Below are positions 45,456 to 61,959 of a stretch of 64,000 nt of DNA, piece after piece. The notes below the pieces were generated by a model. The model was not told the DNA's origin and ran no database searches. It was given only the letters and a program-made list of their open reading frames with translations. Origin of the DNA: Acidimicrobiia bacterium (GTDB lineage Bacteria > Actinomycetota > Acidimicrobiia > Spongiisociales > ZC4RG35). The stretch is from the NCBI GenBank assembly GCA_965215185.1, contig OZ244034.1, forward strand, positions 1,696,001 through 1,760,000, read 5' to 3'. The first letter of the stretch is position 1. Every line of letters starts with the position of its first letter. The translations under genes were made by a program, and so were the position numbers.

Positions 45456-46679
45456 TCAACCACCGTCGGGATCTAACAAACCGACAGTGTCTCGGGCGAT
45501 CAACGATTCTTCATCGGTGGGGATCACCCATATTGCTGTCGGGCTGTCGTCGGTGCAGATACGTCTTTCCCCCTCTCCGTTGTTTCGAGAAGCATCCAGT
45601 ACCAGGCCCGTGGTCTCCAAGCCGGTCAGCACCATCCGGCGTAGCTCCGCACTGTTTGCCCCGATCCCGCCGGAGAACACAACTCCGTCGCATGGTCCAA
45701 CCTGCACTAAAAATGCACCCAGGTAGCGGCGGACCCGGTGAGCGAAAACCTCCAGGGCCAAAGCGGCCGAGGGATCACCCGACTGGGCCGCCCGACCCAA
45801 CTGCCGGTAATCAGAGGAAATGCCGCTCAGGCCCAGCAAGCCCCCTTCTCTCTCCAAGCCACGGCGAATCTCGGACGGAGACAATCCCGCTTCCATGAGA
45901 TGAAACACCGCGGCCGGGTCTATATCTCCGCTTCGGGTGCCCATTACCAGTCCCTCCAAGGGAGTCATCCCCATTGAGGTGTCCACCGCCCGGCCGTCGC
46001 GGACCGCACACGCCGAGGCGCCGTTTCCCAAATGAAAGGTGACCAGGTTGGGCCGAGGTTTGTCCCAAAGACGCGCGGCCCGTTCCACCAGATAGCGCTG
46101 GCTGATGCCGTGGAATCCGTAGCGGCGCACCCCGTGCTCTCGCCACCAATGGGAGGGAACCGCGTATCGGTAGGCATGCGGTCCCAGAGTGGCAAAGAAA
46201 GCAGTGTCGAACACCGCTACCCCGGTCGCCGCGGGCAGCAGTTCTTGGGTGGCGCGGATACCCGCCCGGTTGGCCGGATTGTGAAGCGGCGCCAGTGAGT
46301 CCAGCGCTTTGATGGCTTCCATTACCGACGAATCGATCACCACCGAGTCGGAGAATCGCTCACCACCATGCACCACCCGGTGCCCCACTCCGACGATCTG
46401 TCCCGGATCGGACAGTGCCGCAGGTGTACCCCATCCAGTGAGCGCCTCAACCACTTGGGCCACGCCCGACCGATAGTCGGTGGCCGCCGCCACCATCGTT
46501 GTTTCCCACTCCCCGACCCGATGCTGGTGCTGGACCCGCTCCGTACCGATTCCTTCGATGATCCCTGCCGCTAGGGCGGCGCCTATCTGGATGTCGTACA
46601 GCTTGTACTTGATGGAGGAACTTCCACAGTTGATCACCAGGATCCGCCTCGGCGTCGACCGCACGGCGTCTCGGCTCAA
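45456..46679 (-). CDS. ackA: Acetate kinase
   Basis: NCGSSSIK, GHRVVHGG, APLHN, FDTAF, GFHG, HLGNG, GTRSGD, TDEE. Confidence 0.96.
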   Translation of the reverse strand: MSRDAVRSTPRRILVINCGSSSIKYKLYDIQIGAALAAGIIEGIGTERVQHQHRVGEWETTMVAAATDYRSGVAQVVEALTGWGTPAALSDPGQIVGVGHRVVHGGERFSDSVVIDSSVMEAIKALDSLAPLHNPANRAGIRATQELLPAATGVAVFDTAFFATLGPHAYRYAVPSHWWREHGVRRYGFHGISQRYLVERAARLWDKPRPNLVTFHLGNGASACAVRDGRAVDTSMGMTPLEGLVMGTRSGDIDPAAVFHLMEAGLSPSEIRRGLEREGGLLGLSGISSDYRQLGRAAQSGDPSAALALEVFAHRVRRYLGAFLVQVGPCDGVVFSGGIGANSAELRRMVLTGLETTGLVLDASRNNGEGERRICTDDSPTAIWVIPTDEESLIARDTVGLLDPDGG

Positions 46680-48434: not shown

Positions 48435-49319
48435 CGATCACCTCCCGGCCGGGAGTCTCCGGCTTGTCATCGGTCATCTCTGCGGGAAAGCCGGGGGCGA
48501 GGACCGACGCCCCCGGTGGCCTCCTCCAGGCGTCTGATCACGTTTGGGGACCACTCTCTGTCCCCGTAGCGAACTGCGGCATCGTCGAAATATGTCGACC
48601 AGCACCGGCGCCGGTTCCAGGGGCACGCCGCATCGGTCGGCTACCGACGCGAACAGGGACAAGTCTTTTTGACTAAGTGCATGGTGAAGTTGATGTTGCG
48701 GCTGCCGTTGAGGATCACCTGGCTCTCGGTTTCGTGAACGAACGAGTTGCCCGACGAGATGCGGATGGCCTCGTAGGCAGTGTTCAGGTCGATGCCGGAC
48801 CGCTGTGATCAAAGCTTCGCACAGGGACACCAGGTTGGCGGTAGCCAGGTAGTTGGTGACCACCTTGAGGATCGAGGCTGAGCCCACCGACCGGTGTGCA
48901 GAATGTGGCGGCCCATCGTGACCAGGACCGGCAGGATCCGCTCGAAAGTAAACCGGTCGCACCCAGCGAAGATGGAGATGTTGCCGGTGGCGGCCCGATG
49001 ACACCCGCCCGACACTGGGCAGTCCACCGCCGACCTGCCTGCTGTGGTCACCAACCCGGCTAGGCGTCTCACCTCGGCCTCGTCGGCCTCCATCACCGCC
49101 GCACTGATCGCCGGGCTGGGAAGGCAGGTGATGATTACATCAACCTCGGCCGCCATCTCGGCGGGGCTGTCGGCCCAGCCCGCTCCGTCGGCCTCCAATT
49201 GCGCAGCCGCCGATCTGTCAAGGTCCCGAACGACCAGGTCGAACCCGTTTCGCAGCAAGCTCTCGACCAGCTTGGATCCCACATTGCCCAACCCGATGAA
49301 GCCCACTCTCCCGGTTCAT
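48421..49319 (-). pseudogene. 3-hydroxyisobutyrate dehydrogenase-family NAD(P) oxidoreductase pseudogene
   Basis: GFIGLGNVG, DCPVSGG, LKVVTNYL, SSGNSFVHETE and KDL fall in different frames (about four frameshifts); the usual xxST segment before DEAEV is missing. Confidence 0.85.
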
Positions 49320-50238: not shown

Positions 50239-51435
50239 TTAGGTGGTGAGGATGCAGGCCGAGTTGTTGGCTTGGGCGCCGTAGACCTCGGTGATGGCTT
50301 TGCGGGCGCCTTCCACCTGGCGGGCGCCGGCGGTGCCTCGAAGTTGCCAGGTGACTTCCACAATCTGCAGGACTCCTTGGGCCATGGTTGCCTCTCCAAA
50401 GGAGGAGAATCCCCCGCTGGGGCACACCGGCAACTCGCCACCCAGGGCCGTGACGCCTTTGTCCAACAGCGTTTCTGCCTCGCCCTCCCCGCAAAAGCCC
50501 ATGGTCTCCAGATACTGCAGCTCATGCCAGGAGGAGTTGTCGGGCAATTCCACAAAATCCATGTCTTCGGGTCCCAGGCCAGCCTGCTCGTAGGCCATGT
50601 GTGCCGCCAAACGGCTTTCCGACAGCAACGGTGCGGTGGCGGCGCCATCAGAAGTGGCCGACAACAGCGGGATCCGGATAGTGGGATCGCCGAACTCTCC
50701 ACTGGCAAGCGAGCAAGCCGCCACCTTCACGAGAGGGCGAATACCCAGCCGGCGGGCTTTGTCGCCGCTCACCAACATCACAGCTGCAGCTCCGTCGGAG
50801 GTGGCGCAGATCTCCAGCAGGCGAAGAGGGTCACATACCATGGGCGAGGCAAGCACCTGCTCCAAAGTGAAGGCTTTCTGATAGCGGGCGTAGGGATTGA
50901 GCGACCCGTGCTTGGAGTTTTTGACCTTCACTTTGGCAAGATGTTCGTCGGTGGAACCGTACGCCTCCATGCGCTTTCGCATTTCCAGCGCCCAGTAGGC
51001 GGGGTTGGGGACTCCCACCTGCCAGCGAACCATGTCGACGGGGGGACGGGGCTCGTCGGCCAGCACCGGCACACTAGGAAAATATCCCTTGGGGGACTTG
51101 TCGGTTCCGATCACCAGCACCGAATCGTGCATCCCCGAGGTGATCATGGCATAGGCCGCTCTCATCAAAGAACCCCCCGAGGCGCAGGCGTTGTTGATGT
51201 TGGCGATGGGTATGCCGGTCTCGCCCACCGCGGCGGCAATGGTGTTGCCCGATCTCATCCCGGTGGACCCTCCCCACTGCATGGCGCCCGAGACCATCGA
51301 CTCCACCTCCGTCCACTCCATTCCGGCGTCAGCCACTGCCTCCATGGCCACCTCGGCGCCCATCTCCACCCAGCTCTTTTGGGGGAACTTCCCCCAGGGA
51401 TGAAGTCCCACCCCGGCCACTATCACATCAGTCAT
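50239..51435 (-). CDS. SCP2-type thiolase-like (lipid-transfer) protein
   Basis: GLHPWGK, NNACASG, SDGAAA, PSGG..SFGE, QLRG.AGARQV. Confidence 0.9.
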   Translation of the reverse strand: MTDVIVAGVGLHPWGKFPQKSWVEMGAEVAMEAVADAGMEWTEVESMVSGAMQWGGSTGMRSGNTIAAAVGETGIPIANINNACASGGSLMRAAYAMITSGMHDSVLVIGTDKSPKGYFPSVPVLADEPRPPVDMVRWQVGVPNPAYWALEMRKRMEAYGSTDEHLAKVKVKNSKHGSLNPYARYQKAFTLEQVLASPMVCDPLRLLEICATSDGAAAVMLVSGDKARRLGIRPLVKVAACSLASGEFGDPTIRIPLLSATSDGAATAPLLSESRLAAHMAYEQAGLGPEDMDFVELPDNSSWHELQYLETMGFCGEGEAETLLDKGVTALGGELPVCPSGGFSSFGEATMAQGVLQIVEVTWQLRGTAGARQVEGARKAITEVYGAQANNSACILTT

Positions 51436-51862
51436 CGTTGCTTTCCTCCCGACAAGGACGGAACTTCCAACCGATCACCTCACCCGAGTAGTCGGTGTAG
51501 TAGGGGGCGATCACCGTCTCCATCGCCATCCCCATCCGAAGTTGGTCGACCCTGGCCTCCGCCAAGGGACCCACCACCTGGATGCCCTCGGCGGCGAACT
51601 CCACTTCCACCACCGTGATCGGCTCGAAGGGAACGGGTGCCACAAACGGCGGCGGGGGCGGGAAGTGAACGGTGGTCCAGCTGGCCAGTCGCCCGGTACG
51701 AGAAATGGGGGTGGGCGACACATCTTTGTCTGAGCAACGGGGATTCGGACAGGTAAAACTGGCCGGGAACGCCACCGTCTCACAGGAACGGCATCGGCTT
51801 CCCACCAGGGCAGGCTCAGGGTCGGAGACGAAAGAGCCTTCAAGAACTGGGGTTTGTTTCAC
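51428..51862 (-). CDS. DUF35 Zn-ribbon/OB-fold protein (thiolase partner)
   Basis: CRSC....FP....CPNPRC; overlaps thiolase start. Confidence 0.92.
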   Translation of the reverse strand: MKQTPVLEGSFVSDPEPALVGSRCRSCETVAFPASFTCPNPRCSDKDVSPTPISRTGRLASWTTVHFPPPPPFVAPVPFEPITVVEVEFAAEGIQVVGPLAEARVDQLRMGMAMETVIAPYYTDYSGEVIGWKFRPCREESNDD

Positions 51863-51902: not shown

Positions 51903-52820
51903 TCACCCACCGTTTCGGTAGGCCTCCATGAAGTCTTCCATGGCAGCCAGATGCTGATCCACGGTGAAGTCATATCCGATCGTTCCCAGGAAAGCATGGG
52001 TCACCCCGGCCTTGTCCCACTCCCGGGAGCGGTGGGCGTACTCGGCGGGGTCCCAAGGGACCAGACCCGTGAATCCCACCTCCCCTACCAGCATCCCCAC
52101 TCCGATCTCAGAAGGATCCCTGCCTTTCTGGCGGGCGGCTTCCTCCACCACCTTCAACCGGTTGCGAAGACCCACAGGGTTTCCGGTGCGGTCGGGAAGA
52201 TGAGCGGTTACCGGAGAACCAGCCGAAGCAAGCCAGCCGTCTGCCAACCAGCCGATCCGTCTCAGCACCGGATCGGCCCACCCTCCGATCCAGAGGGGGA
52301 TACGCCGGTTGGGACGGTGGTTGATCCCCGCCGCCACCACCTGATCGAACTCGCCCTCAAAGGTGACCAACTCTTCTTCCCACAATCTGCGCAGCAGCAT
52401 GACCTGCTCTTCGAACCGCCGGCCCCGGGTGCCGAAATCCTGGCCCAGAGCCTGGTATTCGACCTGGTTCCAACCCACACCAACTCCCAGGGTGAACCTC
52501 TCCCCGGACAACAGGTCCAAGGTGGCGGCTTGTTTGGCCACCAGGGCGGTCTGCCGCTGCGGCAGAACCAGCACTCCCAACCACAACTCGATGCGGGTGG
52601 TGATCCCCGCCATGTAACCGAACAGAACAAAAGGCTCGTGAAAAGTCGTCTCATATGTGTAGGGACCGGTGAGCACATGGCGGGAAGGGTCGGCCCCCAG
52701 CACATGCTCGTAGGTGAGGATCGAGTCGAAGCCCAACCCTTCGGCGGTCTCCGTCCAGGCCCGTACCGCCGCCGGATCCGAGCCGATCTCGGTCTGGGGG
52801 AAAACCACTCCGATGTCCAT
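51903..52820 (-). CDS. LLM-class F420-dependent oxidoreductase
   Basis: GVVFPQTE, FHEPFVL, LPQRQTALVAKQAA, GVGWN..EY. Confidence 0.92.
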   Translation of the reverse strand: MDIGVVFPQTEIGSDPAAVRAWTETAEGLGFDSILTYEHVLGADPSRHVLTGPYTYETTFHEPFVLFGYMAGITTRIELWLGVLVLPQRQTALVAKQAATLDLLSGERFTLGVGVGWNQVEYQALGQDFGTRGRRFEEQVMLLRRLWEEELVTFEGEFDQVVAAGINHRPNRRIPLWIGGWADPVLRRIGWLADGWLASAGSPVTAHLPDRTGNPVGLRNRLKVVEEAARQKGRDPSEIGVGMLVGEVGFTGLVPWDPAEYAHRSREWDKAGVTHAFLGTIGYDFTVDQHLAAMEDFMEAYRNGG

Positions 52821-52830
52821 GGAGGTTCTC

Positions 52831-54381
52831 CTACGCCTGCTCGGCGGCGTACATGTCCCTGAGTTCACCCTTGAGAATCTTCCCGGACGGGTTGCGAGGA
52901 ATCACGTCAATAGTCCCCACCGAGGTCGGGCACTTGTAATGGGCGATGCGGCTGCGGCAGAACTCGATGATCTCGGCCTCGGTGGGCGCCTCGTCGCCGG
53001 CCGCCACAATCACCGCCCGGGGAGTCTCACCCCACTTGGCGCTGGGTACGCCGATCACCGCCACATCAGACACTCCCGGGTGCTCCATCAGCACATTCTC
53101 CACCTCGGCTGGGTAGATGTTCTCCCCACCAGAGATGATCATGTCCTTGATTCGGTCTCGGATGTACAGGAATCCGTCAGCGTCCAGCGATCCGGCGTCG
53201 CCGGTGCGCATCCACCCCTCGGCGTTGATGGTCTCGGCGGTGGCTCGCGGGTTCTTCCAATAGCCGCTCATCAGCTGAGGGGAGCGCAGCCAGATCTCGC
53301 CCACCTCGTCCGCGGCCAGATCCTCGGTGCTGACCGGGTCCACGATCCGAAGGTCCACGTTGGCGTGCGGTCGGCCCACCGACAAAAGCCGGTAGGCGTA
53401 AGGGCCGCCGGGATCGTGCTCGTCGGGATGAAGCGTCGTAACCCCGTTGCAGGACTCGGTGAGCCCGTACACCCCCGCGAAATCACAGCCCAGCACGTCC
53501 ATGGACTTGCGGAGGACCTCTTCGGAGATGGGCGACCCTCCGTAGACGATGGTTCGAAGCGCCGAGAAGTCCGCTTCGGCCACTCCCGGCACCTCCAGCA
53601 TGAATTGGAGAAGCACCGGCACCAGAAAAGCGTTGGAGATCCGGTGTCGAATCACCAGGTCCATCAGCAGCGAGGGGATGTTGTCACGGGCGATGATGGA
53701 GGTGTTGCCGTTGTACAACCCCAGCGTCGACCATCCCACGCCACCGATGTGGAACATGGGAAGGTTGACCAGGTTCACCGAGTCGCCGTCGAAGCCCCAC
53801 ATGGGAGAGCAGGTCCGCTTCAACTCCATGAAGGCGTCGTTGGGAATCATCGCCCCCTTCGGGAACCCGGTGGTGCCCGAAGAGAAAAGCAGAAACACAG
53901 TGTCATCTGCTCCCGCGCCTCCGTCCGGGTCGTCGGCGGGATAGCTGTCCCGCCACTCCTCGAACGACTGGTGGCTCTCGTGGCCTCCCACCACCAGAAT
54001 CTTTTGCACGGTGGCGAGGTCGCCAGCGATCTCGTCCAGCACCGGGACATACTCCTGCCCCACTACCAGCAGCTTGATCTCGGCGTCATTGACAACCCCG
54101 GTGATCTCCCGCGGGGAGAGCCGCCAATTGATACCGGCATGCACCGCTCCCAACTTGGCGGCCCCGAACAAGAAATCGAAGAATTCCATGCAGTTTTTGT
54201 CCAGGAACCCCACATGGTCCCCGTGTCCCACCCCGGCGGCGGCCATGGCGTTGGCGGTGCGGTTGGAACGCTCATCCAATTCGACGAAGGTGACTGCCTC
54301 AGTTTCGTAGACCAGTGCGGTCTTATCGGGTTGAAGGGCGGCGTGGTGCCGGACGACCCCGGCGATGTTGTTGATGCTCAT
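52831..54381 (-). CDS. Long-chain fatty acid--CoA ligase
   Basis: FSSGTTGFPKG, YGLTE, RTGD, SGGENIYP, GKILK. Confidence 0.94.
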   Translation of the reverse strand: MSINNIAGVVRHHAALQPDKTALVYETEAVTFVELDERSNRTANAMAAAGVGHGDHVGFLDKNCMEFFDFLFGAAKLGAVHAGINWRLSPREITGVVNDAEIKLLVVGQEYVPVLDEIAGDLATVQKILVVGGHESHQSFEEWRDSYPADDPDGGAGADDTVFLLFSSGTTGFPKGAMIPNDAFMELKRTCSPMWGFDGDSVNLVNLPMFHIGGVGWSTLGLYNGNTSIIARDNIPSLLMDLVIRHRISNAFLVPVLLQFMLEVPGVAEADFSALRTIVYGGSPISEEVLRKSMDVLGCDFAGVYGLTESCNGVTTLHPDEHDPGGPYAYRLLSVGRPHANVDLRIVDPVSTEDLAADEVGEIWLRSPQLMSGYWKNPRATAETINAEGWMRTGDAGSLDADGFLYIRDRIKDMIISGGENIYPAEVENVLMEHPGVSDVAVIGVPSAKWGETPRAVIVAAGDEAPTEAEIIEFCRSRIAHYKCPTSVGTIDVIPRNPSGKILKGELRDMYAAEQA

Positions 54382-54437: not shown

Positions 54438-55778
54438 TCACCATTCCATGGTGCCGGCCTGCTCCAATGCACGGTCGACCATTCCCACCATGGTGTCGAT
54501 GTCCGAACGTGTTGAAATCAAAGGCGGGCACAACATAATCTTGGGTTCTCCCCGGTCGTCGGCCCGAGTGTAGAGACCTGCTTCCATCATCAGAGGAGGG
54601 AGGGTCTGTTTCAGCAACACGTCGGTCTGCTCGGCAGTGAGGCGCCGTCCGGTTTCCCGATCAGCGGTCAACTCCACGGCGTAGAAGAACCCCATTCCCC
54701 GCACATCGCTCACCATGCGATGCCCAGCGGCCATCCGCTCCAACTGATTGCGAAAATGACCGGCCAGACCGCGCACGTTGCCCACCACATCCTCATCACG
54801 AAGCGCAGTCAGGTTGGCGACCGCGGTGGCGGCCACCACCGGATGGCCACCCCAGGTCGCTCCGTGATTGAAGGTGCCGATGTGCGAATCCATCAGTTCC
54901 TCGAAAACCGGCTGGCGAATCAACAGGCCGCCGATGGGAGCATATGAGGAGGTGGCTCCCTTGGCGAAGGTGAGCAGATCCGGGACCACTCCCATCACCT
55001 GCGACCCGAACCACTCCCCCAGGCGCCCGAACCCGTTGATGACCTCATCCGCGCAGAGCAGCACCCCGTATTTGTCACAGATGCGACGCAGTTCCTGCCA
55101 GTAGCCGACGGGAGGAACTATCGCGCCTCCGCCGTTCTGCACCGGCTCGGCCAGCACCATCGCCACCGTCTCGGGTCCCTCCTCCAATATGGCCTGCTCC
55201 ACGCAGGCCGCCGCCTCCACTCCGTCGGTGAACCCCAACGTGTTGGGGACTTTGCGGAATCCATAAAGCAGCGGTCCGTAGGCTTCCCGAATGCCGGGCA
55301 GGCCGGTGGCCGACAGGGCGCCCAGGGTGGTGCCGTGATAGGACAGGTTGCGGCTTATCACCTTCACCCGACGAGGCTCGTTGCGCGCCGAGTGATACTG
55401 GCGTGAGAATTTGATGGCCGACTCCACAGCCTCTGACCCGGAACTGACCAGGAACACCACGTCCAGGTCGCCAGGCGCCAGGGAGGCGATCAGATTGGAG
55501 GCTTCGATGGTGGCGGGGGTGGTCGCCGACCAGGAGGGCGTGTAGGCGAGGGTCTTCATTTGTTCCCCGGCCGCCGCGGCGATGTCCCCGCGGCCATGAC
55601 CGATCTGGACCGAGAACAACCCGGCCAGGCCGTCGATGTAGGAATTCCCGTCCTGGTCCCAGATGCGGATGCCCTCTCCTCTGACCCAAATTGGTGCTCC
55701 TCCACTTCGCCACAGCTTCCCAGCGGTGAAATGCAAAGCGGTGTGGGCCAGGGAGTTGGTGGTGAGCGTGGTGGTCAT
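54438..55778 (-). CDS. Class III PLP aminotransferase, probable taurine aminotransferase
   Basis: SGSEAVE, YHG, EPVQ, DEVINGFGR, TFAKG; substrate inferred from position directly downstream of xsc. Confidence 0.8.
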   Translation of the reverse strand: MTTTLTTNSLAHTALHFTAGKLWRSGGAPIWVRGEGIRIWDQDGNSYIDGLAGLFSVQIGHGRGDIAAAAGEQMKTLAYTPSWSATTPATIEASNLIASLAPGDLDVVFLVSSGSEAVESAIKFSRQYHSARNEPRRVKVISRNLSYHGTTLGALSATGLPGIREAYGPLLYGFRKVPNTLGFTDGVEAAACVEQAILEEGPETVAMVLAEPVQNGGGAIVPPVGYWQELRRICDKYGVLLCADEVINGFGRLGEWFGSQVMGVVPDLLTFAKGATSSYAPIGGLLIRQPVFEELMDSHIGTFNHGATWGGHPVVAATAVANLTALRDEDVVGNVRGLAGHFRNQLERMAAGHRMVSDVRGMGFFYAVELTADRETGRRLTAEQTDVLLKQTLPPLMMEAGLYTRADDRGEPKIMLCPPLISTRSDIDTMVGMVDRALEQAGTMEW

Positions 55779-55796: not shown

Positions 55797-57530
55797 CTAT
55801 TGATTAGCGGCCAGATGCCGATAGCGGTCTAGGTGCCTCACCGGCTGTTGCAGGGCGTCGCGGCGGAAAGGCTCGGCCAATTCTTCGGGGTCAACCATCA
55901 CCTCCACCACGGTGGCCACTTCCGGATCAAGCGATTCCCCGAAAGCGTCCTTCAGGTCGGCGGGATCGGTAACCCTGATCCCCCGTCCTCCCATGGCGGT
56001 GGCGATTTCCGCAAAATTGAACCCTCCCAACTGGTGTCCGATGTTGGTACCCACGAAACGGTCGTCGTAGAAGTCGATCTGGTTGCGCTTCTCCGCTCCC
56101 CACTGCTGGTTATTGAAAACCACCGCCGTCACCGGCAGGTCCTCCTCCACGGCGGTCATCACCTCACTGAGGCTCATCCCCCACGCTCCGTCGCCGACGA
56201 TGGCGAACACCGGAGACTTGGGCGAAGCCAGCTTGGCGCCCAGCGCCCCCGGATAGGCGAAACCGCAGTTGCCAAAACCCATGGCGGCCATAAACCGCCG
56301 GGGCTTGGTGAACCGCAGATAACCATTGGAGACCGAACAGATATTTCCTATGTCGGTGGTGACAAAGGTGTCATCGGTGAGCGTCGCCGCCAACTCGCTC
56401 AGAGCCCGTCGCGGGCTAATAAGAGTGGCGTCGGAAGCCGAGCGGGAGGACAGCTCCTTGTCCCAACTGGCTTTGGTTGCCGCAATGTGGTCCATCCGCG
56501 CCTGATCCACCGGCCGGTCACCCACACTGGCCGCCAGCCGGGCCGAAATAGCCTCGGCCGCTTGGCGGGCGTCGGCGATGATCCCCAACTCGATGGGCTT
56601 GGAACGGCCCAGTTGCTCGGGGTCTATGTCGATCTGCACCACCTTGGCCGATCGTGGATAGAAATCCAGGCCGTACTGGGGAACCGTTCCGAACACGTTG
56701 ATCCGGCAGCCCAACATCAAAACCACATCGGCTTCCGACAAAAGCTCCATAGCCGCCCTCGAACCCATGTAGCCCAACGGTCCCACCGAGAGGGGATGGG
56801 TATAGGGGAAGGCGTCGTTGTGCAGGTAGGAGGCGGCCACGGGGGCGCCGAGTTGCTCGGCCAGCCGGGCGGTCTGCTGGTAGGCGTCAGACAGCACCAC
56901 CCCATATCCGGCCACGATCACCGGGCGGCGAGCCTCGGCCAGCAGGGCCGCGGCCTTGTCCAGCAGGGCGGGGTCGCCGGCTCCGCGCTCGCCGGAACGG
57001 TACTGGTTGGGTTCCAGAATCTCCTCATGGGATTCCCCGTAGAAGAAATCGCGGGGAATGTCAACCTGCACCGGCCCCAGATGGGCCATGGCCATCCGGA
57101 AGGCGGTCCTCATCGATTCGGCCATCCGATCAGGACGGGGAACCTGCAATTGAAATTTGGTGATAGAACGGAAAATGGAGAGTTGTTCCACCTCTTGGAA
57201 CCCGTCCAGTCCAACCGATCCCGAAGTCGCCGAGGGAGTGATGATCACCATCGGAGAGTGGGCGTGATAGGCAGCGGCGATCCCGGTGACCATATTGGTG
57301 ATCCCCGGACCGTTTTGGGCGGTGCAGACCGAGGGGCGGCCGGTGGCCCGAGCGTAGGTGTCGGCCATATGAGCGGCGTTCTGCTCATGGCGGACCGGTA
57401 AAAACCGGATGCCCGCCGCCGGGAAGAGATCAAGGGCGTCCATAAAGGCCGATCCCACGATTCCGGGAACAGTGGTTACTCCCTCCACTCTGAGGGTCTC
57501 AACCAAGGCCTCGCTGGGGGTCATCACCAT
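55797..57530 (-). CDS. xsc: Sulfoacetaldehyde acetyltransferase
   Basis: MTPSEALVE, GIVGSAFMD, QNGPGITN, TDIGNICS, GDGAWGMS, WGAEKRNQ, PFRRDAL are Xsc signatures. Confidence 0.93.
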   Translation of the reverse strand: MVMTPSEALVETLRVEGVTTVPGIVGSAFMDALDLFPAAGIRFLPVRHEQNAAHMADTYARATGRPSVCTAQNGPGITNMVTGIAAAYHAHSPMVIITPSATSGSVGLDGFQEVEQLSIFRSITKFQLQVPRPDRMAESMRTAFRMAMAHLGPVQVDIPRDFFYGESHEEILEPNQYRSGERGAGDPALLDKAAALLAEARRPVIVAGYGVVLSDAYQQTARLAEQLGAPVAASYLHNDAFPYTHPLSVGPLGYMGSRAAMELLSEADVVLMLGCRINVFGTVPQYGLDFYPRSAKVVQIDIDPEQLGRSKPIELGIIADARQAAEAISARLAASVGDRPVDQARMDHIAATKASWDKELSSRSASDATLISPRRALSELAATLTDDTFVTTDIGNICSVSNGYLRFTKPRRFMAAMGFGNCGFAYPGALGAKLASPKSPVFAIVGDGAWGMSLSEVMTAVEEDLPVTAVVFNNQQWGAEKRNQIDFYDDRFVGTNIGHQLGGFNFAEIATAMGGRGIRVTDPADLKDAFGESLDPEVATVVEVMVDPEELAEPFRRDALQQPVRHLDRYRHLAANQ

Positions 57531-57753
57531 TGGTTTCTCCTAATGCAATAGACGTGGTGCTTAAAACTACTAGAGCCGCTGTGTGATTAGGCCCCCAGGC
57601 TGAGATCCTATGTCAAATCTTGGGGCTTTTGGCTGTGGAGGTGGGTCCAGATGCGGTTTCGGGGTTTGGCGTTTTGGGGCTCCGGTGGCTTCTCTTTTGG
57701 TTTCGGCGGTGGCGAGTTTGTTTCACCCAAAGGCGACGGATAGCTAGATCATC

Positions 57754-57771
57754 GAGCCGGTCGGTCGGCTC
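57754..57771 (-). terminator. Short hairpin after the SulP remnant stop
   Basis: GAGCCG-N6-CGGCTC adjacent to the TAA at 57772. Confidence 0.3.
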
Positions 57772-58780
57772 TTATGTCTGCAGTATGCGCCGGGAGAGGT
57801 CCCGGGCCCCGTCCATGTCGGAGACAAACCGGTCGGCGGGGACTCTCGACAGCACATCGAGTACTTGAAGACTCTCGGCCACCGGACCCTCAAGGCCCAA
57901 CACGATGCACTCGGTGTCCTCGGCTATTGCAACATCGATCAACTGCCCAACGACCAGGGCCGCGCTGTCATCCATGGTAATCGGCGCCGGAAAAGTCGAG
58001 GATCACCACCTCATGATCCCGAATATCCACGCTGAGCGTGCCAACCATCTTGTTGGAAGAAGCCACCGTGAAGGTCCCCTGGAAGGCCACCAATCCCACC
58101 CGCGCCGAGAAAGGATCCATATCCTGGCTGATTGTCCTGTCCATCAGGAAACTGTGGTCCAGCAGTGGCACGGAAATTATATTGTCCAACTCCAGATGCT
58201 CCAGTTGCAACGCACTCACCATTCCGGCCACCACCAGACCCACCACCGCCGTCACCAGATCGAGGAAGACCGTAAGCCCCAGAGTGGTCGCCATCACCAC
58301 CAGGTTCTCCCGTTTGATGTAGCGGATGCGGGTAAGAAAACGCCAGTCGATGATGTCCCAGCCGACCTTCATCAGAATGCCGGCAAGAGCCGCCAGAGGG
58401 ACCTGCTCGACAAACCCCCCGAGACCCAAGACCAGACCAAAGAGGATTGCTGCGCTTGTCATCCCCGACAATCTGCTCAATCCGCCGGCCCGGGCATTTA
58501 CCACTGTCCCGAGCGTGTTGCCGGCGCCGGGAACTCCTCCCACCAAACCGGCGAGCATGTTGCCCACGCCCTGGCCCATCAATTCCTGGTTGGGTTATGT
58601 TGGTTACGGGTGATCGAATCGGCTATCAGAGCGGTAAGCAAGGTATCGATGGCGCCCAGTAGGGCGAGGGTCAGAGCCGGCTGCACCGCGCCAGCCAGAA
58701 GGTCGCGGTGGGTTGGGATGATTGGGTGTTGATGGTGGTGGGGGGGAGGCTAGACCGGCCGGGCAGGTCACCTGCGGGGT
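57772..58780 (-). pseudogene. SulP family anion transporter pseudogene (5'-truncated, frameshifted)
   Basis: LALLGAIDTLLTA / ELMGQGVGN..GGVPGAG..TVVN / STAS-like ILDFS..MDDSA lie in three frames; N-terminal half absent. Confidence 0.85.
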
Positions 58781-58899
58781 GGGTTAGGTGGGGTGGATGG
58801 CCCGGAGAAAGGATTGGGAACCAGACATCAGGTATTTAGCGACGGCAATTACCCCCAACCGCAAAGCGTTACCAGGCATCGTTATTGTCCACGGCGGTG

Positions 58900-58987
58900 T
58901 GACCTTTTCTGCTCGATGTGGGATCATGCAACAGGATGCACTGACCTTTTCTGCTCGACCCGCGCCGTGGGATCATGCAACAGGATG
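58900..58987. repeat. Imperfect tandem duplication, two copies of about 40 bp
   Basis: TGACCTTTTCTGCTCGA at 58900 and 58942; GTGGGATCATGCAACAGGATG at 58918 and 58967. Confidence 0.9.
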
Positions 58988-59054
58988 GTCTGCCGAGACA
59001 CCCGAAGCCCGGCATTAACCCAAGGTGTGGCTACAACTTGGGAGAAAGTACACC

Positions 59055-59463
59055 CTAGGCGGAAGAATCCCGGCCAGTGAGGGCGCGGGCCGCCTCGACG
59101 ATCGACGCCAGCGAGCTTCCGGGCGGGAACACCCCGACGTTGCGTTCCGTCAGCCGAGATATGGCCTGAGGCGGCACGGTCCCACCCACGAACACAGGAA
59201 TGTCCCCCACTCCGGCCGTTTCCATCTCGTCGAGGGTCCTCTCCACCACCTCCACCCGGCCACCGACGTTGATTCCCACCAGGTCGACGTCTTCGGCGGC
59301 CGCCACGCTGGCGATCTCGCTGGGTCGTAGCATCCCACCCAGGATCACTTCGAATCCAGCTTCCCGAAGCGCCCGTGCCACCACCGCCACTCCCCGCCAG
59401 TGACCGTCCAAGCTGCATCTTGGCCATCAGCACCCGAGCGGGCGGTGGGAGATGATCAGACAT
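59055..59463 (-). pseudogene. Cobalamin-binding small subunit of acyl-CoA mutase with a +1 frameshift
   Basis: RVLMAK (frame from ATG 59463) and LDGHWRG..VARALREAGFEVI..VFVGG (next frame) are joined only by removing 1 nt near 59417; real lesion or sequencing error. Confidence 0.8.
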
Positions 59464-61093
59464 TGATCGGCGCCTGCCAGTGCCAGTCCCCGAAAGTCCC
59501 CCTCAGCACATCCCCGATCTCACCGATGGAGGCATCGGAGCTCACCGCCTCCATGAAAGCGGGAATGGAGTTCACCGAATCGTTGCGGCACACCGCTTCC
59601 AAGTTGCGAAGCGCCTTCATGGCCCCCTCCCGATGACGGGTGCGACGAAGGTCGGAGAGACGCTCCATGGCCATCTCCCAGGTCTGGGCGCCCGAGCGCC
59701 CCTCGAAGGCCTTCACCTCCATGATGGGATCATCGATGGTGTGGGTGTTCACCCCCACTATCGCTCGATCCCCCGTCTCAATTCCCGCCACGATGCGCTG
59801 ATTGTTCTCCTCGGCGCACTCCAAGAGAAATCCGTCGTCGAGCACCGCCAAGAATCCTCCCCGGGATTGGATCTGCTCGAAGAACTTCCAGCCTCGCTCC
59901 TCCAGTTCACCGGTGAGAGACTCGATGTAGTAGCTCCCGCCCAGCGGGTCGGCCACCTCCCGAAGGCTGATCTCGTTTTGGAGGATCTGCTGGATGCGAA
60001 TAGACATCAGGTGGGCGTGGTCGGAGGGGATGGACATCGCCTCGTCGTAGCCGGACACTCCCAGGGACTGGGTGCCTCCCAACACCGACGCCAGCGCCAT
60101 CAGCGTTCCCCGCACGATGTTGTTGAAAGGCTCCTGGTAGGTCATGGCGCTGCCGGCGGTCACCACGTGGATTCTCATCTGCCGAGCTTTCTCATCGGTG
60201 ATCCCATAGCGCTCCGCCAGCATGTCCGACCACATCTTGCGGGCCGCTCGCAATTTGGCGGCATCTTCGAATATCTCCATGGACACCCGGAAATTGACCC
60301 CTCCGATGCGATGCGCCAAGCGTTCCACATCCACCCTGCCGCGCGCCGCGATCATGTCAAGGTACTGGGCGGCGTTGGCCATCACCGCCCCCAATTCCTG
60401 GAACGCCGAGAGGCCGCTGTCCGCCGCGTTGTAACCGGCGATGGAGACGGGCACCCACCGAGGCATCCGCTCCGAGCACCACTCGATCAGATCCAGGTTG
60501 AAGCGGATCGCCGCCTCGGGGGGGATCTGCTCCTTGGTGGGACACCCCAGGTAGGTAAGAAAGAAGTCGCTCTGTCCCGTCCCGGCCAGCTTCTCGAGCG
60601 GAATTCCCCGCCGAACGGCCACCGACCAGTAGCAGGGCAGCGTGTAGACCGCTGATTGGGCTACTCCACCTCCCGGCTTGGCGTAGATCGATTCAAGGGG
60701 GAGATCCGCGAGAATGGTCTCATAGTCCCGCAAGCCCACCGTGACCGTCCCGGTCAGGCCCACATCCTCCCGCCTCTCCACGATCTCGGGGTGATCGACA
60801 TCGTATAGGTGGTCGTCGGTCATCCGGTCGTGCTTGATAATGATCCCGGTTTCGCCCGCCTCGAACAGGAGAAACTTGAGCCGCTTGTTCATGTCCTCGG
60901 GATTGCCGTACCCCGAGAGTTGGAAGATCCGCCAGGGCCTGTCCCGGTACATACGGGGATAGGCGCCGCGCAGATAGGGCGCCTTACCGGGTGGCGCGGC
61001 CAGGGCCTCTCTGATTCCGGCCGGGACATCCTCCGGCCCATACACCAGCTTGAGTGGTATTCCAGAGGTGGTCTCGGGTTGGTTTTCGATCAT
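59456..61093 (-). CDS. B12-dependent acyl-CoA mutase large subunit, divergent specificity
   Basis: SGIPLK.VY, PY.RG.YP.MY, AKLRAARKMW, NNIVR, LGGTQSL..YDEA, DPLGGSYYIE, VGVN. Confidence 0.92.
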   Translation of the reverse strand: MIENQPETTSGIPLKLVYGPEDVPAGIREALAAPPGKAPYLRGAYPRMYRDRPWRIFQLSGYGNPEDMNKRLKFLLFEAGETGIIIKHDRMTDDHLYDVDHPEIVERREDVGLTGTVTVGLRDYETILADLPLESIYAKPGGGVAQSAVYTLPCYWSVAVRRGIPLEKLAGTGQSDFFLTYLGCPTKEQIPPEAAIRFNLDLIEWCSERMPRWVPVSIAGYNAADSGLSAFQELGAVMANAAQYLDMIAARGRVDVERLAHRIGGVNFRVSMEIFEDAAKLRAARKMWSDMLAERYGITDEKARQMRIHVVTAGSAMTYQEPFNNIVRGTLMALASVLGGTQSLGVSGYDEAMSIPSDHAHLMSIRIQQILQNEISLREVADPLGGSYYIESLTGELEERGWKFFEQIQSRGGFLAVLDDGFLLECAEENNQRIVAGIETGDRAIVGVNTHTIDDPIMEVKAFEGRSGAQTWEMAMERLSDLRRTRHREGAMKALRNLEAVCRNDSVNSIPAFMEAVSSDASIGEIGDVLRGTFGDWHWQAPINV

Positions 61094-61358: not shown

Positions 61359-61829
61359 CTACCCTTCACTCTCCTCTGCGTCGTCGTCAGCAAAGACCTT
61401 TCCAGTGAAATAATCCTGCATCACCTCTAGGTTGATCTCGGTGTTCCCGGGTGCTCCTGGAGGAAGACCATCGCGAGCCTCGATCCAGGGGCGCTCTCGA
61501 CAGGTGACCATCGTTAATTGCGAGAGGGTCCAATCACCAAACATTGTCAGGACGGCCTCCACCGATTCCTTCTCCTCAGGAATAAGCCGACCAGGGTCCC
61601 CATCCTCAGGCCAAGGGCTCTCCAAAAGGAACTGACCCAGATGTTGGTTCATTATCGGTCTCACCACCGGACCGCTCGCCCAAGCTTCGATCGGCTCTTC
61701 GAATAGCGGCACGCCATCCCACGCCAGGTGAAATCCCTGGCAGAAATAGAGAAGCCTATGCAGCTTCAGGGTAAACGTGTTGCCCAGCTTCTCCACCAAG
61801 AGGGCGGCTACATCGCGGGCGCTGACCAT
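61359..61829 (-). CDS. Panacea domain (DUF4065/SocA/GepA-like) protein
   Basis: SARDVA, LKLHRLLYF.QG.HLA, LFEEPIEAW..GPV, E.PW..AR; SD AAGGAG before ATG 61829. Confidence 0.9.
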   Translation of the reverse strand: MVSARDVAALLVEKLGNTFTLKLHRLLYFCQGFHLAWDGVPLFEEPIEAWASGPVVRPIMNQHLGQFLLESPWPEDGDPGRLIPEEKESVEAVLTMFGDWTLSQLTMVTCRERPWIEARDGLPPGAPGNTEINLEVMQDYFTGKVFADDDAEESEG

Positions 61830-61959
61830 TTGTCTCCTTTCTTCAGTACTTGAGAACATAATGGGAGGGTGTGACAAAACCGGCAGTAGGCCAGGCAGCG
61901 GAGAGAGGCCGGACAACTAGAGTGGTGAGCGCCCATAGTCGTACAAGAAAGCTCCGCCA

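Follow-up and report, generated by a model that had tools for sequence, protein, structure and literature searches.

Which reaction does a vitamin B12-dependent acyl-CoA mutase catalyse when its substrate pocket differs from those of methylmalonyl-CoA mutase (MCM), isobutyryl-CoA mutase (ICM) and 2-hydroxyisobutyryl-CoA mutase (HCM) alike? The question is raised by two adjoining genes, here called mutL and mutS, on contig OZ244034.1 of an Acidimicrobiia bacterium (assembly GCA_965215185.1). They lie in the stretch of 64,000 nucleotides (nt) that we analysed as a whole and refer to as the window; all coordinates below are in window numbering. A first-pass annotation, made from the sequence letters, had proposed that mutL founds a new mutase subfamily. 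On balance, we favour the reading that mutL and mutS encode a two-subunit adenosylcobalamin (AdoCbl)-dependent acyl-CoA mutase belonging to a distinct and widespread clade, with a substrate that is probably bulky and not carboxylated. That the whole clade catalyses an acyl-CoA rearrangement outside the six described so far we regard as about an even chance.

An intact large subunit with a replaced pocket

The mutL open reading frame (ORF) is intact, and its translation contains all the motifs quoted in the first-pass annotation. Residues 7–535 match positions 1–512 of the 512-position Pfam model PF01642 (MM_CoA_mutase) with 447 bits (cut-off 22.1), and TIGR00641 is matched with 383.9 bits, above its cut-off of 303.8. 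All NCBIfam equivalog cut-offs are missed, namely those of NF006944 for MCM (338.9 against 876 bits), NF045497 for IcmF (133 against 1500) and TIGR00642 for the MCM beta subunit (145 against 617), and an ESM Atlas query returned generic 'methylmalonyl-CoA mutase' clusters only. Foldseek comparison of the AlphaFold2 (AF2) model (mean predicted local distance difference test score (pLDDT) 76.3; predicted template-modelling score 0.83) gave HcmA (4r3u_A) as the best match, with template-modelling (TM) scores of 0.87/0.85, followed by MCMs at 0.82–0.86, IcmF at ~0.76 and inactive beta chains at ~0.6. The predicted (β/α)8 barrel fold is secure.

Residue equivalences were taken from HMMER alignments of the window protein to solved mutase chains, MCM numbering being the chain index plus 1 in the 5req_A row (Foldseek lists 5req_A as a Y89F mutant, and its Phe stands at index 88). 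The pocket has F57 in place of Arg87, L59 of Tyr89, C184 of Arg207, N222 of His244, V311 of Gln330, G345 of His364 and S347 of Asn366, and it keeps Q174, Y221, H309 and E351 as the counterparts of Gln197, Tyr243, His328 and Glu370. K87 aligns with the Asp of 4r3u_A that lies 27 residues past the Ile of WTMRQI, a spacing that fits Ile90 and Asp117 of HCM. For Arg87, Tyr89, Arg207, His244, Ile90 and Asp117 we assume the roles assigned to them in the MCM and HCM structure literature. The alignments bear out the substitutions that had been listed by eye at the outset, and the resulting combination is unlike the MCM (Tyr/Arg/His), ICM (Phe/Gln/His) and HCM (Ile/Asp/Gln/His) types.

The replaced pocket is nearly fixed across the window protein and 120 homologues listed by a word-indexed search (59–92% identity; 121 aligned rows). 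D89, R90, G183, C184, Y221, N222, H309, G345 and E351 are invariant (121/121), and W54, R55, F57, Q58, S60 and G61 are each found in 120 of the 121 rows. V346 and S347 occur in 117 rows each, H88 in 115, L59 in 115 (Ile in 5) and V311 in 96 (Leu in 25). Judged from the alignment, such a signature far exceeds what chance would give. When one genome per species was scanned, 230 stretches with a mutL relative came up, the best 80 of which were kept as loci L001–L080. Measured against 14 close relatives with 89–92% protein identity to window MutL, the ratio of nonsynonymous to synonymous substitution rates (dN/dS) of mutL is 0.057–0.067, and the relatives compared with one another have a median of 0.060 (91 pairs); the window gene has no excess, and selection on it is not relaxed. 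The first-pass annotation had allowed that the substitutions might be unique to this genome and a mark of decay. They are instead near-invariant in 120 homologues, with relatives in 230 species genomes and a dN/dS of 0.06. MutL of the window is two residues longer (545 against 543 amino acids (aa)) through an in-frame tandem duplication of 6 nt (ACTGGC twice, 59476–59487) close to the 3′ end of its gene; among the 15 aligned sequences only the window has this duplication.

Compared with a canonical set of 36 representatives, the mutL family has 56 conserved positions in common and 18 that are fixed differently. Besides the equivalents of Gln197, Tyr243, His328 and Glu370, it retains the GTxQxD and DEA motifs. 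Further fixed changes are Thr85 to Arg55, Phe117 to His88, Leu119 to Arg90, a Thr to Gly141 and Lys-Glu to Leu179-Thr180. Read together with the exchange of Arg87 for Phe, the change at Thr85 looks as though an arginine had in effect been shifted two residues along the strand. Exchanges of large for small pocket residues are fixed at Gly141, Gly345, Cys184, Ser347 and Asn222, which suggests a larger cavity without the carboxylate clamp. Because Arg207, Tyr89, Arg87, His244 and Gln330 are replaced and large residues have given way to Gly and Ser, the substrate is most likely not a dicarboxylate of the malonyl or succinyl type. A bulkier, largely lipophilic branched acyl group is more likely.

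Position 87 divides the family. The first-pass annotation had proposed an acyl group that is bulky or differently charged and had taken the Lys as a speculative clue to an anionic or sulfonated substrate. Of the 121 proteins, 78 have Glu at this site and 43 have Lys, and the two residues mark two deep subclades (30 Lys-type and 50 Glu-type among the 80 loci), with ~25 further positions that switch along with them, for example Asp93/Ala, Met68/Glu and Glu188/Gln. Since Lys87 is confined to one of two deep subclades, it is no evidence on the substrate of the family, and a role as a family-wide anion binder was ruled out by the prevalence of Glu and the ~25 co-varying positions. The proposal of a bulky substrate stays plausible, given the large-to-small exchanges and the FadD13-like ligase described below; the charge argument drawn from Lys is not supported. 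Lys87 and Glu87 subclades may have different substrates.

A separate clade, one of many

When the 50%-identity representatives were searched exhaustively with HMMER, the mutL family formed a single cluster (P0007, 854 bits). The next clusters follow at 527 bits (P0125, 45% identity), 444 bits (P0126, 41%) and 381 bits, and below that lies a plateau at ~35% identity. We built a midpoint-rooted FastTree phylogeny from 11 family members and 143 representatives, the latter comprising the query and those of the best 150 that reach 430 aa. In it the family forms a single clade, with 100 as its Shimodaira–Hasegawa-like (SH-like) support and a stem 0.4 long. P0125 (pocket F-L-E-N-N) and P0126 branch next to it as sisters, followed by P0129 and P0137. 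Family and sisters, 19 rows in all, are split with support 99 from 135 rows that hold every canonical signature: 32 rows of MCM type (R-Y-A-R-H), 4 of ICM type (F/Q/H) and 1 of HCM type, the types having been assigned from pocket signatures at five sites rather than from characterised reference sequences. The family is thus set apart from the MCM, ICM and HCM signatures. Clustering with a characterised mutase, which the first-pass annotation had named, together with turnover of that mutase's substrate, as fatal to its proposal, is not seen for these types.

The claim of a new subfamily therefore stands in so far as the family is a clade of its own outside the MCM, ICM and HCM types. What the first-pass annotation had not seen is that it is one of very many non-canonical clades. 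Only 37 of the 143 representatives have a canonical MCM, ICM or HCM pocket at the five sites, so that the mutL clade shares its unexplored status with many others. For P0007 and its sisters there is no NCBIfam match at E ≤ 1e-200, whereas canonical representatives do have one. Most of the clusters P0125–P0273 likewise have non-canonical residues at the Arg87, Tyr89, Arg207 and His244 sites and no strong NCBIfam match; examples are Y-D, Y-N and H-C combinations and Val, Gly or Ser at the 207 site.

The best 80 of the 230 species-level genomes are all metagenome-assembled genome (MAG) records, labelled Acidimicrobiia, Dehalococcoidia/Chloroflexi (Leptofilum), Gamma-, Alpha- and Deltaproteobacteria, Thermoleophilia, Nitriliruptorales, Pseudonocardiaceae and others. 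Locus L038, labelled as an uncultured Enterobacteriaceae MAG, has two family-type mutL ORFs; the second is found some four genes downstream of the first and adjoins an acyl-CoA dehydrogenase gene. We found no paper on this clade or its signature in the literature searched, which mostly left out subscription papers.

A constant B12 partner with a broken frame in the window

In all 76 loci whose sequence continues for 450 nt or more past mutL, a B12-binding ORF lies directly downstream of it. The DGHWRG motif is present in 70 of the 76 small subunits, and in the other six the search pattern matched elsewhere in extended ORFs. The small subunit of one relative scores 97 bits against TIGR00640 (cut-off 57). 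In the window the motif lies at 59392–59409, with Trp where the motif of solved MCMs, which we take to be DGHDRG, has Asp after the cobalt-ligating His.

The first-pass annotation had spoken of a small subunit in need of repair, and rightly so: the mutS frame of the window breaks just before the DxHxxG motif. In three-frame translation, the frame that starts at the ATG at 59463 reads MSDHLPPPARVLMAKMQLG and then nonsense, and the B12-binding domain beginning DGHWRG continues in the next frame (ORF 59055–59411). This 118-aa downstream frame matches Pfam B12-binding with 57 bits and TIGR00640 with 83 bits from model position 11–13 onwards; tblastn matches with the MutS proteins of relatives begin in the window only at their residue 18–22. 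DNA alignment places the extra base at 59417 (AAGA[T]GCAGC, coding strand), outside any homopolymer. It is absent from all 14 close relatives, and without it the window gene would read AKSSLDGHW as they do. A programmed frameshift was considered and rejected, being needed in 0/14 close relatives and 0/76 loci.

Nine other syntenic genes align with those of the relatives over their full length in a single frame, so the region is not generally riddled with insertions and deletions. Together with the absence of excess dN/dS in mutL, this means that any inactivation is very recent, or that the assembly is wrong at the extra base. The window has one further apparent frameshift, which splits a 3-hydroxyisobutyrate-dehydrogenase-like gene (48474–49306, minus strand) over two overlapping ORFs, of which 48809–49306 encodes the NAD_binding_2 and 48474–49004 the NAD_binding_11 domain.

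These features raise the possibility that the whole clade is non-catalytic, as the MCM beta subunit is, or that the window copy is a fresh pseudogene remnant with a broken partner. Key catalytic-site residues of canonical mutases are indeed replaced in MutL, the mutS insertion is found in no close relative, and a truncated SulP remnant (see below) and the second split gene lie nearby. We nevertheless consider loss of function a distinctly unlikely explanation. The replacing residues are themselves invariant across a family with a dN/dS of 0.06, a B12 subunit with the cobalt-ligating His accompanies the large subunit in 76/76 loci, and MeaB adjoins in 12 loci; in the window itself, mutL has no excess dN/dS and the nine syntenic genes are full length in one frame. 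The inactive MCM beta subunit (MutA) also has a non-canonical active site, but it matches MutL weakly (98.6 bits over residues 225–418, TM ~0.6), and the mutL family differs from it in having an invariant pocket and a B12 subunit of its own.

A CoA ligase and β-oxidation genes beside the mutase

Neighbouring genes up to 6 kb from mutL were counted by tblastn in the 61 loci (15 of the window lineage, 9 other Lys-type and 37 Glu-type) in which 4 kb or more of sequence flank it on each side, with Pfam names for the neighbours. We used tblastn because ORF calling by length and GC position on the 80 loci picked shadow ORFs, missing mutL in 8–20 of them and swapping xsc for an antisense ORF. The principal features of the window are given in Table 1.

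Table 1. Genes of the mutL–mutS array and acetate kinase in the window
Feature	Position	Strand	Remarks
mutL, large substrate-binding TIM-barrel subunit	59456..61093	minus	545 aa, ATG start, intact ORF
mutS, B12-binding small subunit	59055..59463	minus	start overlaps mutL stop; +1 insertion
xsc-type sulfoacetaldehyde acetyltransferase	55797..57530	minus	NF005713 820 bits (cut-off 620); TIGR03457 795 bits (cut-off 676)
Class-III aminotransferase	54438..55778	minus	Pfam Aminotran_3 276 bits; 18 nt after xsc
AMP-forming acyl-CoA ligase	52831..54381	minus	Pfam AMP-binding 270 bits and AMP-binding_C; NF004837 517 bits against 476
F420-type luciferase-like oxidoreductase	51903-52868	minus	Pfam
DUF35/ChsH2-like OB-fold protein	51428-51862	minus	Pfam
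SCP-x-type thiolase	50239-51435	minus	Pfam
Acetate kinase	45456-46679	minus	441 bits

No neighbour of the mutase is as widely conserved as the ligase, which is present in 50 of the 61 loci (15/15 of the window lineage, 9/9 other Lys-type and 26/37 Glu-type) and lies directly downstream on the same strand in 23. Among the 60 best matches, its closest relatives in the Protein Data Bank are FadD13 of M. tuberculosis (3r44_A, 313 bits), feruloyl/fatty-acyl-CoA synthetase and FadD5, and a Glu-type orthologue has similar ones. Other neighbours are short-chain dehydrogenases/reductases (SDR; 21 loci), enoyl-CoA hydratase (19), acyl-CoA dehydrogenase (13), iron-containing alcohol dehydrogenase (12), luciferase-like oxidoreductases (11 and 16), cytochrome P450 (10) and TetR (10), together with an M20 amidohydrolase in 6 loci, all of them Lys-type outside the window lineage. 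The MeaB chaperone is encoded within 6 kb in 12 of the 61 loci, all proteobacterial, and FadB or thiolase genes adjoin the mutase in several. In the window, the oxidoreductase, DUF35 and thiolase genes align with those of relatives over their full length in one frame; NCBIfam matches in this trio are TIGR03619 (227 bits) and NF004715 (441 bits). Taken together, the neighbours are arranged as in a catabolic module in which an acid would be activated, its skeleton rearranged and the product passed to β-oxidation.

Downstream of the array, on the minus strand between 39261 and 47805, are genes for an acyl-CoA dehydrogenase, a PEMT/ICMT-type methyltransferase, an SDR, the E1alpha, E1beta and E2 subunits of a 2-oxoacid dehydrogenase and a second AMP-binding ligase. 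Directly upstream of mutL, also on the minus strand, a SocA/Panacea-domain antitoxin-like ORF (61359–61916; Pfam PF13274, 47 bits) was found; no toxin partner was identified beside it, and it is not called in most relatives.

Comparison with characterised mutases

HcmAB of Aquincola tertiaricarbonis (4r3u) is the best match to MutL by sequence (296 bits, 32% identity) as well as by structure (TM 0.87). Both systems are split into a barrel of ~560 aa and a B12 subunit of ~140 aa, and both follow an operon logic with a dedicated CoA ligase, that of hcl-hcmAB being set out in PMC7176365. The mutL clade could thus be HCM-like, interconverting a tertiary 2-hydroxy-2-alkyl-acyl-CoA and a 3-hydroxyacyl-CoA on a different or longer substrate, with Glu87 or Lys87 acting as Asp117 and Leu59 as Ile90. 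HcmA outscores MCM (296 against 247 bits), and the Leu/Glu pair of Glu-type loci is chemically near Ile/Asp. The SDR neighbour of a gammaproteobacterial locus scores as a 3-hydroxybutyrate dehydrogenase (TIGR01963, 346 bits against 307), and the FadB or thiolase genes of several loci would also suit such a product.

The residues, however, point elsewhere. HCM has Arg87, His244, Gln330, QSLHTN (with the His364 and Asn366 sites) and the Ile90/Asp117 pair, whereas MutL has Phe, Asn, Val, QSLGVS and Leu/Lys (Glu in most members), and the window subclade has no acid but Lys at the Asp117 site. The family is not sister to P0169, the HCM-type representative of the tree, and Leu59, Lys87, Phe57 and Asn222 all depart from the HCM pattern. 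The ligase resembles long-chain FadD13-type enzymes, and none of its 60 best matching chains is named as a 2-hydroxyisobutyrate ligase. An HCM-like reaction is therefore rather unlikely in our estimation, and a bulky, non-carboxylated acyl group remains the preferred substrate.

RcmAB of Kyrpidia tusciae is a split, (R)-specific 2-hydroxyisobutyryl-CoA mutase, described as distantly related to HcmAB in PMC7176365. At the Asp117 site, the mutL family has Lys or Glu. A homologue search with P0138 (signature R-I-V-C-N) gave no match to Kyrpidia RcmA. RcmAB reportedly has Val at position 117 and so shares with the mutL family a changed residue at this site. Two further reports concern an engineered HCM from Bacillus massiliosenegalensis, which lies outside the mutL clade (PMC11599936), and an HCM-type pathway (PMC13188929).

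MCMs (P. shermanii 1req/4req, human 2xij and M. tuberculosis 6oxc) belong to the same superfamily and have the same fold (214–247 bits, TM 0.82–0.86). Their Tyr89/Arg207 carboxylate clamp and His244 are missing in MutL (Leu59, Cys184 and Asn222), and their B12 domain is fused, whereas that of the mutL system is separate. Substrates of the ethylmalonyl-CoA mutase type carry a carboxylate, and the Arg that would bind it is likewise Cys in MutL. ICM, IcmF and pivalyl-CoA mutase act on non-carboxylated acyl-CoAs, the class of substrate suggested by the MutL pocket; IcmF is nevertheless much more distant (107 bits, TM 0.76), and the ICM type has Phe/Gln/His where MutL has Leu/Cys/Asn. For pivalyl-CoA mutase, the first-pass annotation cited a reported Leu.

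A possible lineage-specific link to sulfonate metabolism

In the window lineage, mutL and mutS are followed on the same strand, with short gaps, by xsc, the aminotransferase, the ligase, the F420 oxidoreductase, the DUF35 gene and the SCP-x thiolase. The first-pass annotation had taken the nearby xsc as a further, likewise speculative clue to such a substrate. A homologue of xsc lies within 6 kb in 15/15 window-lineage loci (~90% identical) but in only 1 of the 46 others, that is, in 0/9 other Lys-type and 1/37 Glu-type loci, and the aminotransferase occurs in 15/15 and 0/46. The association of xsc with the mutase is lineage-specific, which makes it a weak clue for the family, and a functional link is only putative.

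Within the window lineage, the mutase, Xsc, aminotransferase and ligase could form one pathway in which a sulfonated or otherwise anionic acyl-CoA is rearranged, for example 3-sulfopropanoyl-CoA to 2-sulfopropanoyl-CoA, after which an Xsc-type thiamine enzyme would expel sulfite. This pair is the sulfonate analogue of succinyl-CoA and methylmalonyl-CoA, and the rearrangement would leave the sulfonate alpha to the carbonyl. The five genes form one tight same-strand array in all 15 loci, Xsc scores above its equivalog cut-offs, acetate kinase follows further down the array, a SulP remnant stands beside xsc, and Lys87 sits where HCM has its residue for the polar group of the substrate. Yet xsc is all but confined to this lineage, although the rest of the pocket is alike in all, and Lys87 co-varies with ~25 positions that include the acidic Asp93 and Glu188, which fits a subclade split and possible internal charge pairing. 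Taurine aminotransferase, Xsc and acetate kinase already make up a complete known pathway that needs no mutase; the acetate kinase here would complete the route from sulfoacetaldehyde through acetyl-phosphate to acetate. An acylating aldehyde dehydrogenase was not found in the array. We regard the sulfonate pathway as very improbable.

The ~1.5-kb stretch between mutS and xsc (57531–59054) is absent from the 14 close relatives, in which xsc follows mutS after ~50–60 nt. Its ORF 57968–58582 (minus strand) encodes only the C-terminal part of SulP (Pfam model positions 280–379 of 380), with ~68–72% DNA identity to a SulP gene 8–10 kb upstream of mutL in L003–L005, and the stretch looks like a truncated remnant left by rearrangement. 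The same stretch contains, at 58900–58992, a tandem duplication of a ~45-nt unit found nowhere else in the window; an 18-mer occurs twice in it (58918–58935 and 58967–58984), as does a 17-mer (from 58900 and from 58942).

The proposed reaction

For the favoured reading, a bulky, non-carboxylated acyl-CoA, the reaction might proceed as follows. The dedicated AMP-forming ligase encoded nearby would convert a carboxylic acid to its CoA thioester. With AdoCbl bound through the His of DGHWRG, Co–C homolysis would start the radical reaction, and the mutase would shift the thioester carbon by the usual radical 1,2-shift. The straightened product would then enter β-oxidation-type steps, as the frequent neighbouring genes for acyl-CoA dehydrogenase, enoyl-CoA hydratase, FadB and thiolase suggest.

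Several observations weigh against this scheme. Arg87 and His244, present in 36/36 canonical representatives, are replaced in the mutL family, and so is Tyr89. Mutation of His244, Tyr89 or Arg87 reportedly slows MCM by two to three orders of magnitude. In the mutL family the chemistry could therefore differ or be absent. The gained Arg55, His88 and Arg90 could hold an anionic group in a new geometry. AF2 confidence is lowest in the pocket loops 46–54, 185–187, 315–320 and 343–357 (pLDDT below 50), and a larger, less polar pocket is suggested by aligned residue identities only. The clade itself is drawn from SH-like supports in a midpoint-rooted FastTree phylogeny of the best 150 representatives and 11 members. 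No MeaB gene was found in the 64-kb window, the adjacency of MeaB elsewhere being limited to 12/61 loci, and no Rfam family reached its gathering score in the window, cobalamin riboswitches included. Finally, as regards the window copy, the mutS insertion either arose as an error of sequencing or reflects a recent knockout that leaves the mutase of this genome inactive.

Implications for the mutase superfamily

Few enzymes can move a carbon branch, and for this reason earlier specificities for isobutyryl-, ethylmalonyl-, 2-hydroxyisobutyryl- and pivalyl-CoA each opened a pathway or a biotechnological route. The mutL clade is a well-defined candidate for a new B12-dependent rearrangement. It has dropped residues once regarded as common to all acyl-CoA mutases (His244, Arg87 and the Tyr89 site) while remaining strongly conserved and keeping a constant B12 partner, and it thereby tests which residues the radical chemistry needs. 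Should the sulfonate pathway hold after all, organosulfonate breakdown would gain its first cobalamin-dependent carbon-skeleton step. Found in at least 230 species-level genomes, almost all of them uncultured, the clade would mark a B12-requiring catabolic route in environmental and host-associated bacteria, and the reaction space of the mutase superfamily is probably much larger than the handful of known reactions.

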